From the NCBI GenBank assembly GCA_963666835.2, contig CAXXGO010000006.1:2048001-2112000 (forward strand): a DNA stretch of 64,000 nucleotides, given 5' to 3'. Position 1 is the first letter of the stretch; the number at the start of each line of letters is the position of its first letter. Origin of the DNA: Phycisphaerae bacterium. Lineage in GTDB: Bacteria > Planctomycetota > Phycisphaerae > UBA1845. Below the pieces are notes generated by a model. That model had not been told where the DNA came from. It worked only from the letters and a program-made list of their open reading frames with translations, and did no database searches. Shown in pieces: positions 1 to 5,543 of the stretch. Made by a program: the position numbers and the translations under genes.

Positions 1-470
1 TCCGCTTCGTCCATGTCAAACCAGTAGACGTCTAACGCTGAATCCGGGTCAGTTGTGTGCGAGTACCGCCCGAAGGTCAGCCCCACCACGTTCAGTTTCA
101 AGAAGAAGTCCGCACGCCCGTTGATCTTCAGATGCAGCGTGTCCGGACCGAAGTTGGACACCGTTGGCAACGGCTCCCAGCCGGCCAAGTCCAGAGCCGG
201 GAGTCGGACGTCGGTGCGCGCAACGCCGGGTTTGGTTGCCGGTGCTCCGGGGTTGTACATCGGCTCGTTCGCGGCGTTTCGGACCTCCCCAACGTAGCCG
301 TAGGCGACCTCGGACACGTCGAGAAGGGGTTGTTTTCCCGTTAGGGTGGTGATGGCGAACAGTCCGATGATCGCCATCAGCAAGCTGAGTATCGCTGCTC
401 CGACGATCTTCTCGGTTCTGCTGATTGTCTTCGCACTACGGGCATATCGCCGGCCGAGGAATCTGGCCAT
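1..470 (-). CDS. Membrane-anchored hypothetical protein, DUF6599-like (3' end outside window)
   Basis: Manual translation from ATG at 470: MARFLGRR..IVGAAILSLLMAIIGLFAIT (TM)...FGPDTLHLKINGRADFFLKLNVVGLTFGRY...LDVYWFDM. Frame is open to position 1 and resembles the DUF6599 'LYxxING.A..Y...V.IYDM' pattern. Confidence 0.55.
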   Translation of the reverse strand, partial: MARFLGRRYARSAKTISRTEKIVGAAILSLLMAIIGLFAITTLTGKQPLLDVSEVAYGYVGEVRNAANEPMYNPGAPATKPGVARTDVRLPALDLAGWEPLPTVSNFGPDTLHLKINGRADFFLKLNVVGLTFGRYSHTTDPDSALDVYWFDMDEA

Positions 471-1354: not shown

Positions 1355-2694
1355 GTAGTGTTTTGTTAGCCCAAGGTGAAGCGGGTGTGGTCATAGGAAT
1401 AATCCTGGCGATGGTGGTGATTTCCGTCATCATCGCGATGTTGAAGCTGGTGGTGGTCGGCAATCCGAGTGAGATGCTGATTATCAGCGGGAAGCGCCAA
1501 AGAGACGGGCAAGGCTATCGAACTCTGATCGGCGGACGAACTCTGGTGATTCCTATTCTGGAGAAAGTGTCTCGAATCAGCCTGCGGAACATGCAGGTGT
1601 CGCTGGAGGTCGGAGCGCAATCCGGCGGCGGGACCATGATGCCGATCATCGTGACCGGAGTGGCCAACGTCAAAGTGTCGTCCGATCCCACGGAACGCGC
1701 CAACGCCATCGAACGATTCCTCGGACAGCCGGCTCAGGAACTGCAGCGCGTTGCCCGTGAGACCTTGGAGGGCGGGCTCCGGGCCGTGGTTGGCAAGATG
1801 ACCCCAGAGGAGATTGTCGAGGACCGCGACAAGTTCGTAGCCACAGTCATGCACGAGGTGACCGATGATTTCCGCAAGCTCGGTCTGCTGATCGACAGCG
1901 TCAACATCCAGAACGTCAAGGACGATCAACAGTACCTCGAGTCGATCGCCCGAAAAGCCCGGGCGGAAGTCATCGCCGCGGCGCGGAAGGCAGAGGCGGC
2001 AAGGGCGTCCGAGGCGGCGATCCGAGAGGCGGAAGCCAGTGCGGCCGCCCGGACTGCGAAGGCCGAACGGGATGCCGAGGCGAAAACCAGCGAGGCCATG
2101 GCTCGCCAGAAGGCCGAAGAGGCCCGCTATGTGGCGGACAAGGCTATCGCGGAGGCGGAGAATGCCTTGCGAATCCGGAAAGCGGAGCTGGCCCGTGAAG
2201 CCGCGCTGAAGGAAGCGGAGCAGCAGGAGGCGGCCGCCGCTGCCGAACGCGAGAGGCTCAATGCCACTGAAGTTGCCGCCGCCGGAGCGGCCCGCGACGT
2301 GGCCCGGGCGAGGGCCGAAGGAGATGCCGCGTCGGTGTTCGAAGAGGGCAAAGCCCGGGCTTCGGCGATCGAGGCGATCGGCAAGGCCATCCGCGAGAAC
2401 CCGGACGCGCTGAAGGTCATGCTGGTCGAAATGATGCCGGGAATCACGGCCGAGTTCGCCAAGACGGTCGACAACGTGAATCTCGGAGATGTTACGGTGT
2501 TCGATGGCGGCAACGGCCGGGCCATCGCGGGGGCGGCGATGGGACGGGCTCAGGTCCTGTCCGAGTCGCTCGGGATGTTGGGCAGCGTAATGGGCGTGGA
2601 TTTACGCGAGCTGAGTCGCAACATCGCCGGTGCGATAGCGGCGAAAGCCGGCCCCGCCGAACCCGATGACACAACGCTGTCAACTACATCGTAA
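1351..2694 (+). CDS. Flotillin / SPFH (band 7) domain protein
   Basis: N-terminal TM, SPFH core (VTGVANVKV..AIERFLG..ETLEGGLRAVVGKMTPEEIVEDRDKF..LGLLIDSVNIQ) and an Ala/Glu-rich coiled coil. Confidence 0.92.
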   Translation: MSSVLLAQGEAGVVIGIILAMVVISVIIAMLKLVVVGNPSEMLIISGKRQRDGQGYRTLIGGRTLVIPILEKVSRISLRNMQVSLEVGAQSGGGTMMPIIVTGVANVKVSSDPTERANAIERFLGQPAQELQRVARETLEGGLRAVVGKMTPEEIVEDRDKFVATVMHEVTDDFRKLGLLIDSVNIQNVKDDQQYLESIARKARAEVIAAARKAEAARASEAAIREAEASAAARTAKAERDAEAKTSEAMARQKAEEARYVADKAIAEAENALRIRKAELAREAALKEAEQQEAAAAAERERLNATEVAAAGAARDVARARAEGDAASVFEEGKARASAIEAIGKAIRENPDALKVMLVEMMPGITAEFAKTVDNVNLGDVTVFDGGNGRAIAGAAMGRAQVLSESLGMLGSVMGVDLRELSRNIAGAIAAKAGPAEPDDTTLSTTS

Positions 2695-2702
2695 ACGGCC
2701 AT

Positions 2703-2740
2703 TGAGGGGATAGTGGCATAACCCTGTCACTATCCCCTCA
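2703..2740 (+). terminator. Stem-loop directly after the flotillin stop
   Basis: TGAGGGGATAGTGGCA / TGTCACTATCCCCTCA forms a 16-bp stem (one G.U) with a 6-nt loop; no U-tract. Confidence 0.55.
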
Positions 2741-2804
2741 CCCCGGCTGGGTGCCCCCCCCAGGGCCAGCGCACATTAAATCCCTTGTGCCATAAGGACT
2801 TCCA

Positions 2805-3350
2805 TTAGGAGTTATTAGGGAGTTATTAGGGACAGTCACCTATTTTCGTTATGGAGTTATCGTTATTACGTTATTAGGGACAGTCACCTATTTCCTGAAG
2901 GGGCGTATCAAGCGAAAACCAACGGCAGGTCTCGTGCCTCGACCGTGCCCTACGCGCGCCGACGCAGTTATTAGGGACAGTCACCTATTTCCTGAAGGGG
3001 CGTATCGCGCGAAAACCAACGGCAGGTCTCGTGCCTCGACCGTGCCCTACGCGCGCCGACGCTGCCTGACCCGTGCCGCCGGCGTTGTCCGGCATTGTGC
3101 AGGCAGGTTGCCTACGCTACATGAGGGGTGCCTGCACTACGAAGGGCCGGCGGATCGTTATTAGGATGTTATTAGGGACAGTCACCGATTTCCTGAAGGG
3201 TCGTATCGCGCGAAAACCAACGGCAGGTCTCGTGCCTCGACCGTGCCCTACGCGCGCCGACGCTGCCTAACCCGTGCCGCCGGCGTTGTCCGGCATTGTG
3301 CAGGCAGGTTGCCTACGCTACATGAGGGGTGCCTGCACTACGAAGGGCCG
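2805..3350. repeat. Mosaic of tandemly duplicated REP-like elements (BIME-like)
   Basis: TTATTAGGGACAGTCACC at 2823, 2871, 2968 and 3169. REP CGGCAGGTCTCGTGCCTCGACCGTGCCCTACG at 2923, 3020 and 3221. A duplicated ~85-bp block contains GCAGGTTGCCTACGCTAC. Confidence 0.9.
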
Positions 3351-3422
3351 GGGGACGGGCATCGCAATCGTACGAAGACCGCCGGCCGACAGCGGTGAAA
3401 CCGGCGAGCGTCCCGTGCGCAC

Positions 3423-3464
3423 AAAAAAAGGCCCGCCTCGACCGAAAAATCGGTGAGACGGGCC
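3423..3464 (-). terminator. Rho-independent terminator
   Basis: Minus strand reads GGCCCGTCTC-ACCGA-TTTT-TCGGT-C-GAGGCGGGCC followed by T7. The stem mismatch is a G.U pair only on the minus strand. Confidence 0.85.
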
Positions 3465-3503
3465 CGAACTCTGTTCGCTGCCGCAGGCAGCATCGTCTGC
3501 CAC

Positions 3504-3533
3504 CTACGGCAGCCAACCTATGCTATAGCCCAT
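3504..3533 (-). CDS. 9-aa mini-ORF MGYSIGWLP
   Basis: ATG GGC TAT AGC ATA GGT TGG CTG CCG TAG, preceded by the extended SD GGAGGTGATCC. Confidence 0.4.
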   Translation of the reverse strand: MGYSIGWLP

Positions 3534-3733
3534 GGATCACCTCCACTTCAAAAACGGGACCGTTCGACCAACGGGGAGGCTAGTCCCCGAACCATCGATC
3601 TAGCCCATCCTGCGAATCGTCATTCGCAGGCCCGAGCAACGTCCGGTTCTGCCGGACGCCCAGCCGTGATTCGAACCCGTATCGGCATGCCCAATTTCAC
3701 GCCGGGAACGGATCCCACCCTCACAGCCACCTT

Positions 3734-3763
3734 ACTGTATCGGGTTGCTCACTGCGAAGTCAA
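3734..3763 (-). promoter_or_regulatory. Sigma70-type promoter
   Basis: -35 TTGACT (3763-3758), 18-nt spacer, -10 TACAGT (3739-3734). Confidence 0.6.
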
Positions 3764-3995
3764 GAAAGAAATGGTCCGCTAGAATGTCAGAAACGATGTG
3801 CTGGTCCGGGTACTGCGGGCTTTCCCGATTGGGCGGAACAGTTACGCCGACCCTGCCGTCTGGGTGCTCAGAAGCAGACGCTGAGGCCGAAACGAACAAC
3901 TCGCGGTACCGATAATTGACGCCGCCGACGTCCAATCTAGAATCGCGGGCGATGTCAGGGGATCCCTCATTAGCGCTCACCGTCCGCATAACCGC

Positions 3996-5543
3996 ATGAA
4001 CTACCTTACTTTCTCGGGAAACAACATCGTTAACGCGCGTCTTCCGGACAGCGCCGAGGTCTTCTACGCCCGTCCCCCCATCCCGGGGATCAAGAAGCGC
4101 GACATCCCCCAGGCCGTGGTGAAAGCGTTCGAGAACCCGCTGGGTATGCCGCCCTTGAAGGATCTGGTCGGCGCCAACTCGCGGATTCTGATCGCCTTTG
4201 ATGATAACTGCCAGCCCTTCCCCGAGACGTCACTGCCGGACATCCGTCAGCAGGCTCTCGAGGCGCTGATTCCGCTGCTGTACTCATACGGAGTCCAGAA
4301 GGAGAACCTCCGGCTGGTGTGTGCGGTCGCTCTGCACCGCAAAATGAAGAAGCACGAACTCGCCCGGATGGTCGGCCCGCGGATCATGGGCGAGTTCTAT
4401 CCCCAGCAGCTTGATAACTCCGATGCCGAGGACCCGGATGACGTCGTCGACCTTGGTGAAACGGAGCTGGGCGAGCCGGTCCGCGTTACCCGCGGAGTGG
4501 TCGAGAGCGATCTGGTTATCTACGTCGATTCGGTCCAGATTCCGCTCAACGGCGGGCACAAGTCCGTAGCCGTTGGTCTGGGAGCGTACGACTCCATCGC
4601 CAACCACCACCATCCGGAGATGACTGCCGAGAGCCCGCACGTCATGCAGCCGGAGGGGTCCCGCATGCATGACTGCATTGAACGCCTCAGTCATGTCATT
4701 CAAAAGCACGCGAGGATCATGGTCATGGAGGCGGCCATGAACAACGCGACGTACCCGTTCCACGTGCGCTACTTGGGGAAACCGCCCGCCCGGTGCAACT
4801 TCGCCGAGAAGATCGTGCGCGCCGCGACCCCCACGGCGCTGGCTTTGCTCCCTGAATCTGCCAGAAGGATGGCACTTAGAGGAGTTCGGGCGGACTACGA
4901 CGCGATCGAGATCAACGCCGGTGCCATCGACCCGGTCCACGTACGGACTCTGCAGGCGATGAAGGACCAGATGACGATCCCGGCGCCGAAGCAGTACGAT
5001 ACCGTGGTCTTCGGGCTGCCGGATTTGAGCCCCTACGCCGTGGATGCGCGGATCAACCCGGTACTGGTGGTCAGCGATGTGTTGGGTTACGTGTTCAACT
5101 GGTTCTACAACAAGCCGGTGGTCAAGAAGGGCGGGACCGTCATCATCCTCAACCCGTGCTTCGAGGTGTTCCACGACGAATACCACGTAGCCTACCGGAA
5201 GTTCTATGAAGAAGTGCTCCCGGTTACGACCGACCCGTTCGAAATGAAGGAGATGTTCCAGGAGAAGTACGCCCGCGACCCGTACCTGATAGACTGTTAT
5301 CGCCATCGCTTCGCCCACCACGGTTTCCACCCCTTCACCGTGTGGTACTGGGCGACGTATGCCCTTAAGTATTTGTCAAAGGTGATTCTGGTCGGCCCCG
5401 CAGACGACACCGGGGCCAAGCGTCTGGGTGTTTCGTGGTCCCCGAACATGGATCACGCCCTCGGGCAAGCCCGCGAGGCGTCCGGCGGAAACGAAGTGGC
5501 CGGCCTGACCATCCCGCCGTTCTTTTACTTTGAAGTGGCGTAA
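3996..5543 (+). CDS. Lactate racemase (LarA/DUF2088) family protein
   Basis: AFENPLGMPPLKDLV, IAFDD, ALHRKM, NGGHKS and ANHHH motifs typical of the LarA N-terminal domain; 515 aa. Confidence 0.8.
   Translation: MNYLTFSGNNIVNARLPDSAEVFYARPPIPGIKKRDIPQAVVKAFENPLGMPPLKDLVGANSRILIAFDDNCQPFPETSLPDIRQQALEALIPLLYSYGVQKENLRLVCAVALHRKMKKHELARMVGPRIMGEFYPQQLDNSDAEDPDDVVDLGETELGEPVRVTRGVVESDLVIYVDSVQIPLNGGHKSVAVGLGAYDSIANHHHPEMTAESPHVMQPEGSRMHDCIERLSHVIQKHARIMVMEAAMNNATYPFHVRYLGKPPARCNFAEKIVRAATPTALALLPESARRMALRGVRADYDAIEINAGAIDPVHVRTLQAMKDQMTIPAPKQYDTVVFGLPDLSPYAVDARINPVLVVSDVLGYVFNWFYNKPVVKKGGTVIILNPCFEVFHDEYHVAYRKFYEEVLPVTTDPFEMKEMFQEKYARDPYLIDCYRHRFAHHGFHPFTVWYWATYALKYLSKVILVGPADDTGAKRLGVSWSPNMDHALGQAREASGGNEVAGLTIPPFFYFEVA

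Follow-up and report, generated by a model that had tools for sequence, protein, structure and literature searches.

Introduction

Small mRNAs of the rre kind are published but unexplained, and they have been described from one class of Proteobacteria. According to the published account (Hahn et al., RNA Biol 2016/17, PMC5711450), rreB of the Bradyrhizobiaceae is a 165-nt stand-alone transcript in which 17 nt, including the first base of the GUG start codon, are complementary to the 3' end of 16S rRNA; its small open reading frame (sORF) has 14 codons and is weakly translated, and that of rreR in the Rhodobacterales has 18 codons. In the same account, rreB co-sediments with 30S subunits, removal of its start codon leads to greater stability, and its overexpression did not slow growth. 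Its authors regard RreB and RreR as small proteins conserved within their clades and report rre analogues in Alphaproteobacteria only. Here, we describe an rre-like RNA encoded on the minus strand, between positions 3763 and 3423, of a 64,000-nt stretch of DNA (the window) from a planctomycete, a Phycisphaerae bacterium (contig CAXXGO010000006.1). The kind of RNA has been published, and the planctomycete family and its architecture are new; the RNA is real, conserved, and absent from Rfam.

By published description (PMC5711450), the rreB and rreR RNAs and the planctomycete RNA are alike in being stand-alone small transcripts with a sigma-70-type promoter (RpoD-like for rre) and a terminator, in having complementarity to 16S rRNA far beyond that of a normal Shine-Dalgarno (SD) sequence, with its last base being the first base of the start codon, and in having a very short sORF that mostly starts with GUG in a genomic context that is not conserved between clades. 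They differ in phylum, the rre RNAs being alphaproteobacterial and ours belonging to Planctomycetota, and the comparison is one of descriptions, not of sequences. They also differ in dimensions: ~305 nt, 12 nt of pairing (7-18 in relatives), and 9-13 codons here, compared with 165 nt, 17 nt, and 14 codons reported for rreB. Moreover, the planctomycete RNA has an extra covarying 5' domain of ~190 nt and a stop codon inside a putatively bistable 15-bp hairpin, and its peptide shows no amino-acid-level constraint, unlike RreB and RreR as published.

More distant comparisons can be drawn with the CreT RNA toxins of CreTA modules, for which a strong SD, a start codon, a mini-ORF, and a stable stem-loop are reported to be critical (PMC8501985), and with the yfr6 and Downstream-peptide (glutamine-II) motifs, in which, as described, one transcript carries both a riboswitch and a short ORF (Weinberg et al. 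2010, PMC2864571).

A separate gene with its own promoter and terminator

Direct reading of positions 3200-4000 identified minus-strand 3763-3423 as a separate gene, with a promoter, ~305 nt of hairpins, an extended SD, a 9-codon ORF, and a terminator. The original prediction, made from the letters of the window, had placed a sigma-70-type promoter TTGACT-18-TACAGT so that it points into the RNA. This promoter (3734-3763; TTGACT 3763-3758, TACAGT 3739-3734) was evident on direct reading and was recovered by a consensus scan, which scored it 9/12 and detected 2 promoter-like sites in the region (0.7 expected); the predicted transcription start is near 3728. Of 56 homologous loci, 34 had a TTGMM-16..19-TAnnnT motif at the matching place, compared to none of 56 control windows; the -10 end of the motif lay mostly 189-201 nt 5' of GGAGG. 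The ~305 nt end, as claimed originally, in an intrinsic terminator (3423-3465), which consists of the stem GGGCCCGUCUC...GAGGCGGGCC (3465-3430) followed by U7 (3429-3423) and is structurally kept among homologues. A terminator scan missed this 3' terminator, whose loop exceeds the length limit of the scan, and listed an internal hairpin and U-run at 3574-3550 instead.

A blastn search of 41 relatives found homologues in eight other genomes, most alike over the SD, the ORF, and the hairpin that follows it. A covariance model, R1, built on the core of the RNA matched 86 of 101 genomes of the family and 53 of the 58 that were at least 90% complete, with one true copy in each; second matches within a genome were the reverse strand of a near-palindromic hairpin. 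For covariation, we aligned 30 family sequences with MAFFT, derived a structure with RNAalifold, and used shuffles (500) and slid pairing partners as controls. In this structure, 92.4% of cells were paired, compared to 81.9% in shuffles (none of 500 as high) and 34-45% with slid partners, and both-side (compensatory) changes occurred at 31 of 51 pairs. The terminator stem (helix 7) was paired in 94% of cells, with compensatory changes at 4 pairs. Homologues and covariation, both sought as checks on the original prediction, were therefore found (86/101 family genomes; 31/51 pairs).

Complementarity to the 16S rRNA tail

A U-rich linker (3554-3550) and an extended SD, GGAGGUGAUCCA (3544-3533), occupy minus-strand positions 3554-3533. 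The genome's own 16S gene ends ...CUGCGGCUGGAUCACCUCCUUUCU, and comparison with this end verified the earlier statement that GGAGGUGAUCCA is an exact 12-nt complement of the 16S tail. The last A of GGAGGUGAUCCA, the twelfth complementary base, is also the first base of the AUG start codon. The 12-mer has two occurrences in the 6.0-Mb genome, one being this SD and the other the 16S end read in reverse complement. Because 0.83 occurrences are expected by chance, the 12-mer in a single genome proves nothing, and it is conservation that carries the argument.

First, GGAGGUGRU was present in 61 of 64 loci found by the covariance model, and the three loci without it were weak or partial matches. Second, in a set of 60 sequences, position 10 of the SD was C 52 times, U 7 times, and A once, and the counts for position 11 were 50 C, 4 U, and 6 A. 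Substitutions at SD positions 8 and 10 were mostly of the wobble-preserving type (A to G, C to U), and most changes beyond GGAGGUGRU therefore keep a wobble pair with the 16S tail. Third, when this genome's 16S tail was assumed for all relatives, the contiguous Watson-Crick run was 7-18 nt and most often 11-15 nt; with G.U pairs allowed, 15 nt was the commonest length. On the same assumption, a Watson-Crick run of at least 16 nt was found in just 10 of 154 relatives. AAA precedes GGAGG in many relatives. The genome as a whole makes moderate use of SD sequences, with an SD-like 4-mer motif upstream of 30% of first starts versus 13% of control windows.

Frame and peptide of the mini-ORF

The mini-ORF (3504-3533, minus strand) reads AUG GGC UAU AGC AUA GGU UGG CUG CCG UAG, nine codons and a stop, with the AUG at 3533-3531 and the UAG at 3506-3504. 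Direct reading thus agreed with the ORF predicted earlier, MGYSIGWLP, opened by the last A of the SD. Nine codons were present in 27 of 29 distinct family sequences, and relatives have 9-13. Across 154 distinct homologues, a start codon followed GGAGG by 4-10 nt in 152, by 6-8 nt in 148, and by exactly 6 nt in 97; the starts among the 152 were GUG (116), UUG (21), and AUG (15). ORF lengths clustered at 9 (55 sequences), 10 (30), and 11 (47) codons, and the stops were UAG (79), UAA (63), and UGA (9).

Insertions and deletions reveal which spacing matters. Measured from the start codon, the hairpin motif SCUGC began at a distance of 20, 23, 26, or 29 nt (2 mod 3) in 132 of 142 motif-bearing sequences. 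By contrast, the distance from GGAGG to SCUGC took every value from 31 to 38, because the spacer between the SD and the start varies by 1-2 nt. Loci found by a sequence pattern (see below) were preselected for a stop triplet in the hairpin, not for its frame, and loci found by the model were preselected on neither. All 29 of 29 family sequences had the first in-frame stop within a local hairpin loop, as did 24 of 31 other model-found sequences, compared to 7-12 for the other two frames. Since indels within the ORF come in threes and those before it do not, the mini-ORF is clearly under selection as a reading frame.

Constraint on the peptide was a different matter. Entropy was the same at the first, second, and third codon positions in every length class (means of 1.37/1.32/1.31 for 9 codons, 1.49/1.42/1.31 for 10, and 1.21/1.26/1.14 for 11), and we found no amino-acid-level constraint on the peptide by codon-position entropy in the 9-, 10-, and 11-codon classes. 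AUAGGU is fixed at the nucleotide level. The family peptide consensus, x-x-Y/S/C-N/D-I-G-W/R/G-L-P/L, reflects conservation of nucleotides, without a third-position signal. Peptides of different clades have L-(L/P/R/H) alone in common, and this pair is imposed by the hairpin stem GCUGC. A comparison of the anti-16S segment with the peptide, which the original prediction had proposed as a check, thus gave a kept SD (61/64 loci) and a peptide without amino-acid constraint.

These results bear on the possibility that the locus is the gene of a 9-12-residue micropeptide, with its long structured 5' region serving as a regulated leader, for example a riboswitch-like sensor that controls translation. 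Conservation of frame, start, and stop would fit such a gene, as would the existence of a family peptide consensus, the published view of RreB and RreR as conserved small proteins (PMC5711450), and the precedent of yfr6 and Downstream-peptide transcripts (PMC2864571). As described, the latter resemble our RNA in having transcripts of about 250 nt, a structured 5' part, and a short ORF with multiple-of-three indels. They are also described as having a synonymous-substitution coding pattern and a known aptamer, whereas the planctomycete RNA has neither a coding-type pattern nor an aptamer that matches Rfam. The lack of any excess of third-position variation, the fixation of AUAGGU as nucleotides, and the dictation by GCUGC of the only residues common to different clades likewise speak against a micropeptide gene, which we consider unlikely. 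A selected frame without a selected peptide sequence instead favors a role in ribosome engagement.

A hairpin over the stop codon

The last three codons and the stop codon lie in the 5' arm of a 15-bp hairpin (3477-3513, minus strand) with an AGACGAU loop, an element that the original prediction had overlooked. This hairpin (helix 6) was paired in 95% of cells, with compensatory changes at 4 pairs. Each of its arms is self-complementary, and the alternative structure consists of two 6-bp hairpins, one of which has the stop codon in its loop. The two-hairpin form fits the alignment equally well (96.7% of cells paired) and has no covariation signal, because the positions concerned never vary. 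Constraint from two folds would explain the near-invariance of GCUGC/GCAGC.

A mini-ORF that ends at a stable stem-loop invites comparison with CreT, in which, as described (PMC8501985), strong translation signals and a mini-ORF lie just upstream of a stem-loop and activity comes from translating, not from the peptide. If our RNA acted similarly, efficient initiation, rare codons in the mini-ORF, and the stem-loop would together sequester a scarce tRNA or ribosomes and slow growth. All of the elements reported as critical for CreT are present, and codons used fewer than 5 times per thousand make up 15.3% of mini-ORF codons compared with 3.7% genome-wide, an enrichment of ~4-fold that is approximate because this genome's codon usage was applied to all sequences, including those of other genomes. 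AUA, AGG, UGU, and AGU are among the rare codons most used. By published description, CreT comprises 4-6 codons, of which two in succession are identical and rare, lies beside CRISPR-Cas, is repressed by CreA, and is toxic (PMC8501985), and our RNA lacks these features: the codons just after the start (GGC UAU AGC AUA GGU...) include no identical rare pair, and no cas or CRISPR neighbors were found among 67 flanking ORFs. In addition, no rare codon was common to all clades, and the NGG codon before CUG was AGG, UGG, GGG, or CGG interchangeably. Finally, unlike CreT (PMC8501985), the RNA is a near-universal single-copy gene in its family, a distribution unlike that of an addiction toxin. We regard a CreT-like function as very unlikely.

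The folded 5' domain

A long interrupted hairpin (3662-3728, minus strand) with apical loop AAAUUGGG (3697-3690) lies at the predicted 5' end of the RNA. Direct reading bore out the pairing scheme proposed earlier, including five non-Watson-Crick pairs that are all G.U on the minus strand (G3728-U3662, U3725-G3665, G3714-U3674, U3712-G3676, and G3700-U3687). The sequences of the 5' domain align poorly among family homologues yet fold alike, and in 26 of 30, RAAnnnGGG occupied the apical loop of a hairpin in which it is enclosed by at least 12 pairs. The apical helix (helix 1) had compensatory changes at 5 of 5 pairs. Next, hairpin P4 (CGUCCGG/CCGGACG, 3640-3658, minus strand) varies in length between homologues and, as helix 2, had both-side changes at 6 of 6 pairs. 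Hairpin P5 (CCUGCGAAU/AUUCGCAGG, 3609-3630, minus strand; helix 3) has a GACG tetraloop (3621-3618) that is retained in other orders and classes; 97.5% of its cells were paired and 7 of its 8 pairs were compensatory. Domain P6/P7 (3556-3606, minus strand; helices 4 and 5) consists of GGGC...GUCC (3606-3603 with 3560-3557) enclosing UCGA...UCGA (3598-3595 with 3567-3564) and a variable hairpin; these pairings are conserved and covary, with compensatory changes at 4 of 4 pairs in helix 5. Of the further hairpins in the original prediction, those now called P4 (3658-3640) and P5 (3630-3609) were upheld, whereas GCUAG/CUAGC and CCGUU/AACGG proved specific to this sequence, the GGGC/GUCC and UCGA/UCGA pairings being conserved there instead.

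In all clades, GACG (or AACG) is the loop of two to three hairpins per RNA, here including the P5 loop and the hairpin loop at 3498-3492; two homologous loci (L042 and L048) have three C-GACG-G loops each. To judge from their sequences, these recurring loops look like a repeated protein- or RNA-binding site. Two candidate interactions were discarded: a pairing predicted by RNAalifold between GCC, 5' of P4, and GGU of the SD, which showed no covariation, and a pairing of the P5 loop with 16S helix 44, for which the flanking base is not conserved outside the family.

Covariation also bears on whether the real gene lies on the other strand, where a 109-codon ORF (3453-3782, plus) is antisense to the RNA. 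Among 30 homologues, 12 have an antisense frame without stops across the entire 314-nt region, and 24 have one of at least 83 codons. Nevertheless, the ORF had no Pfam match, three-base periodicity was weak at most (1.07/1.01/0.95), and 196 of 259 pairwise indel runs were not multiples of three. Covariation and G.U pairs that exist only on the minus strand explain the conservation, and the promoter and terminator face the other way. The antisense frame is open because the plus strand is poor in T here (positive AT skew), so that composition alone removes stop codons. We therefore consider an antisense protein gene extremely improbable. Gene-calling programs will probably predict a spurious protein of ~100-150 residues on this strand, both at 3453-3782 and at homologous loci.

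Distribution and neighboring genes

Within a class-wide sample, R1 matched 42 of 151 genomes. The named homologues with the highest scores are in keeping with the assignment of this genome to Phycisphaerae. A pattern scan with one genome per species gave at least 120 stretches, of which 80 matches were listed; the following counts refer to the matches listed. R1 confirmed 72 of these 80, and 69 of the 72 came from records labeled as planctomycetes: Phycisphaerae, Phycisphaerales, Phycisphaeraceae, Tepidisphaeraceae, Gemmataceae (5), Planctomycetaceae or Planctomycetales (9), and Planctomycetota. The remaining three were one 'uncultured bacterium' and two short contigs of metagenome-assembled genomes (MAGs) labeled Bacillota and Acidobacteriota. 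The homologues on these two contigs (L096 and L097; 2.6 and 10.8 kb) scored 26.9 and 66.5 bits, and misbinning of planctomycete DNA, rather than transfer, probably accounts for them. Eight listed matches fell outside Planctomycetota, in Collimonas, Thioclava, Bradyrhizobium, Erwinia, and four MAGs; R1 confirmed none of them, and they were set aside as chance matches inside ordinary coding DNA.

Pfam annotation of 67 ORFs flanking 38 loci (within about 1.5 kb) revealed unrelated neighbors, with the downstream gene on either strand. Because neighboring genes are not conserved, the RNA is not a leader, and we rejected a leader peptide or attenuator on these grounds. A broader alternative would be a regulatory RNA that is not translated, or a leader or attenuator acting in cis, in which the SD-like stretch pairs only with 16S or another RNA and the ORF is incidental. 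Conservation at the nucleotide level, the large structured 5' domain, and the internal hairpin and U-run just 5' of the SD are compatible with this idea, as is the orientation of the next gene, which shares the strand of the RNA at 13 of about 34 loci. On the other hand, multiple-of-three indels between the start and the hairpin, alongside a freely varying SD-start spacer, are hard to explain without translation, and a leader is opposed by downstream genes that are unrelated and often convergent and by a structurally conserved terminator of the RNA's own. We judge this alternative to be distinctly unlikely. The proposal of a dedicated stand-alone RNA in the original prediction is backed by the promoter, the terminator, covariation, single copy number, variable neighbors, and contigs that contain the RNA only (see Expression); that it is a stand-alone RNA, neither a leader nor a protein gene, is well supported.

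Some neighborhoods deserve mention. In two distant homologues from one genus (L043:1501-1623 and L047:1501-1622), the RNA is directly upstream, on the same strand, of a peptide chain release factor gene (PCRF and RF-1 domains) and divergent from a gene for a class I Glu/Gln tRNA synthetase. A MiaB/RimO-like gene lies downstream in three family loci. In the window, Pfam annotation of the neighbors identified a divergent Lar_N-domain gene on one side of the RNA and a convergent Band 7/flotillin gene on the other. Directly after the stop of the latter (1351-2694, plus) is a 16-nt inverted repeat (2703-2740; 94% complementary, 6-nt gap), which is probably its terminator hairpin. The gene-free ~700 bp downstream of the RNA's terminator consists of dispersed repeats (about 2897-2959, 2994-3139, and 3196-3323, within 2897-3323); segment 2700-3420 had 145 matches across the genome's contigs at 71-100% identity, and the RNA itself is single-copy.

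Expression

Twenty public runs contain part of the stretch, and nine of these are recorded as RNA. We aligned four metatranscriptome runs from three studies on positions 3300-3900. Contigs of 151-190 nt with 98-100% identity covered 3529-3718, and contigs of relatives (218-325 nt) matched 3473-3544; no contig from the four runs covered 3300-3467 or 3720-3900. Hence, regarding the discrete transcript anticipated earlier, contigs from three studies covered the RNA alone (3529-3718), and its ends and strand lie beyond what contigs can establish. These observations give moderate support to an abundant and discrete RNA.

Three contigs from the three studies (runs X6, X9, and X11) end at 3529, 3530, and 3532, in the codon after the AUG. 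This is where the A site of an initiating ribosome would be, and no loose ends have been reported there. The ends could be an assembly effect or a real processing site.

Known RNA families

No match to Rfam 15 was obtained at the gathering score over the whole window, and a search of 2600-4100 with E values up to 10 gave two chance-level matches alone (E 3.1 and 8; a terminator look-alike and Scr1601) and no aptamer. The earlier statement that the RNA matches no family thus holds for Rfam 15, and it does not hold for the literature, in which a class of like kind, the rre small mRNAs, has already been described. Transfer-messenger RNA (tmRNA) combines a tRNA-like domain with a tag ORF and is present once per genome. 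We excluded tmRNA as an identity for the locus because the canonical one is elsewhere in the genome, at 162.9 bits, and our RNA ends in a terminator and has no RF00023 match. The Rhodopirellula-1 motif, the sole planctomycete motif without an Rfam entry in Weinberg 2010, was also excluded, being a different and simple hairpin according to the supplementary alignment. Searches of the literature on planctomycete noncoding and structured RNA found nothing on this RNA, searches with the SD sequence being swamped by 16S primers, and in a 2025 review of the phylum the terms sRNA, ncRNA, and riboswitch do not occur.

Proposed function

We think it fairly probable that this ~305-nt RNA is a stand-alone small mRNA of the rre kind, a ribosome-docking mini-mRNA that functions by engaging ribosomes. 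Transcription would start at its own sigma-70-type promoter and end at its own terminator, giving an RNA whose 5' two-thirds is a conserved multi-hairpin domain and whose 3' third is a very strong translation start site. From the complementarity, a 30S subunit would be expected to dock at the U-rich linker and the extended SD. Selection on the frame is seen directly, and the ribosome would presumably then read the nine codons. To finish, it would have to open the 15-bp hairpin that holds the last codons and the stop in its 5' arm, freeing a 3' arm that could fold on itself; the hairpin may thus be a bistable element driven by translation. What would matter is engagement of the ribosome and not the peptide, with the shape, lifetime, or partner binding of the RNA reporting on, or making use of, ribosome occupancy. 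The 5' domain might be a sensor or a platform for protein binding.

The original prediction had offered 30S capture or a micropeptide mRNA. Neither is proven, and selection on the frame (132/142) but not on the peptide favors ribosome engagement over a peptide role. Plain titration of ribosomes, as by a simple sponge, is unlikely because overexpression of rreB is reported not to have slowed growth (PMC5711450).

Several observations count against our preferred interpretation. First, 30S binding and translation are here predictions from sequence. Second, complementarity of 16-17 nt is the hallmark of rre genes, the search for which used at least 16 nt, and this copy has 12 nt, so we file the RNA as an rre-like variant and not as a member. 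Third, most starts are the weaker GUG or UUG, and single-sequence folding did not reveal a markedly open SD, with a mean unpaired probability of 0.38 compared to 0.33 for the whole RNA and greater openness in 40 of 60 sequences. Fourth, the proposed hairpin switch follows from compatibility with both folds, and covariation backs the long form alone. Fifth, the evidence for expression consists of assembled contigs, which are unable to prove transcript ends, strand, or level. Finally, spread throughout the phylum is not supported. Outside the class, R1 matched 12 of 151 genomes of a phylum sample with weak scores, the alignments of these matches still holding the GACG-loop hairpin, AAAGGAGGUGAUCC, and a start codon. 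A second model, R2, from a MAFFT alignment of 124 diverse sequences, kept 8 base pairs alone and did worse than R1 (4/151 in the phylum sample). A strict pattern, GGAGGTGRTYN{15,31}GCTGCNNTARN{0,4}GCAGC, occurred in 0 of 401 phylum genomes; the window's own RNA also fails this pattern, which is therefore uninformative on absence.

A bolder proposal, which we offer tentatively and would not ourselves bet on, is that mini-mRNAs with an extended SD form a widespread and possibly ancient ribosome-engaging class. In the planctomycete form, docking and a 9-codon 'test run' would flip the bistable hairpin and so make the RNA a sensor of, or checkpoint for, free, translation-competent ribosomes, the 5' domain would couple this read-out to a ligand or protein, and the contig ends at 3529-3532 would mark ribosome-dependent cleavage of the type proposed for rreB. 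6S RNA mimics an open promoter to bind RNA polymerase; if the ribosome-sensor idea is true, the RNA described here would resemble 6S RNA, but for ribosomes.

The RNA is an uncatalogued and abundant family that is useful in the annotation of planctomycete genomes and metatranscriptomes, in which spurious proteins are easily called on the strand antisense to it. It also brings to a distant phylum the same design as the rre RNAs, in which a transcript that stands alone has an SD pairing with most of the free 16S tail and a tiny ORF with a mostly GUG start. To this design, the planctomycete version adds comparative evidence for a selected frame without a selected peptide, and a hairpin that a translating ribosome must open and that may be able to refold a second way; together, these make the role of such RNAs at the ribosome directly testable. 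That an rre-like design is present in a distant phylum, and is retained in single copy by most genomes in a large family, suggests that engaging ribosomes in this way is general and under selection and not the quirk of one lineage.

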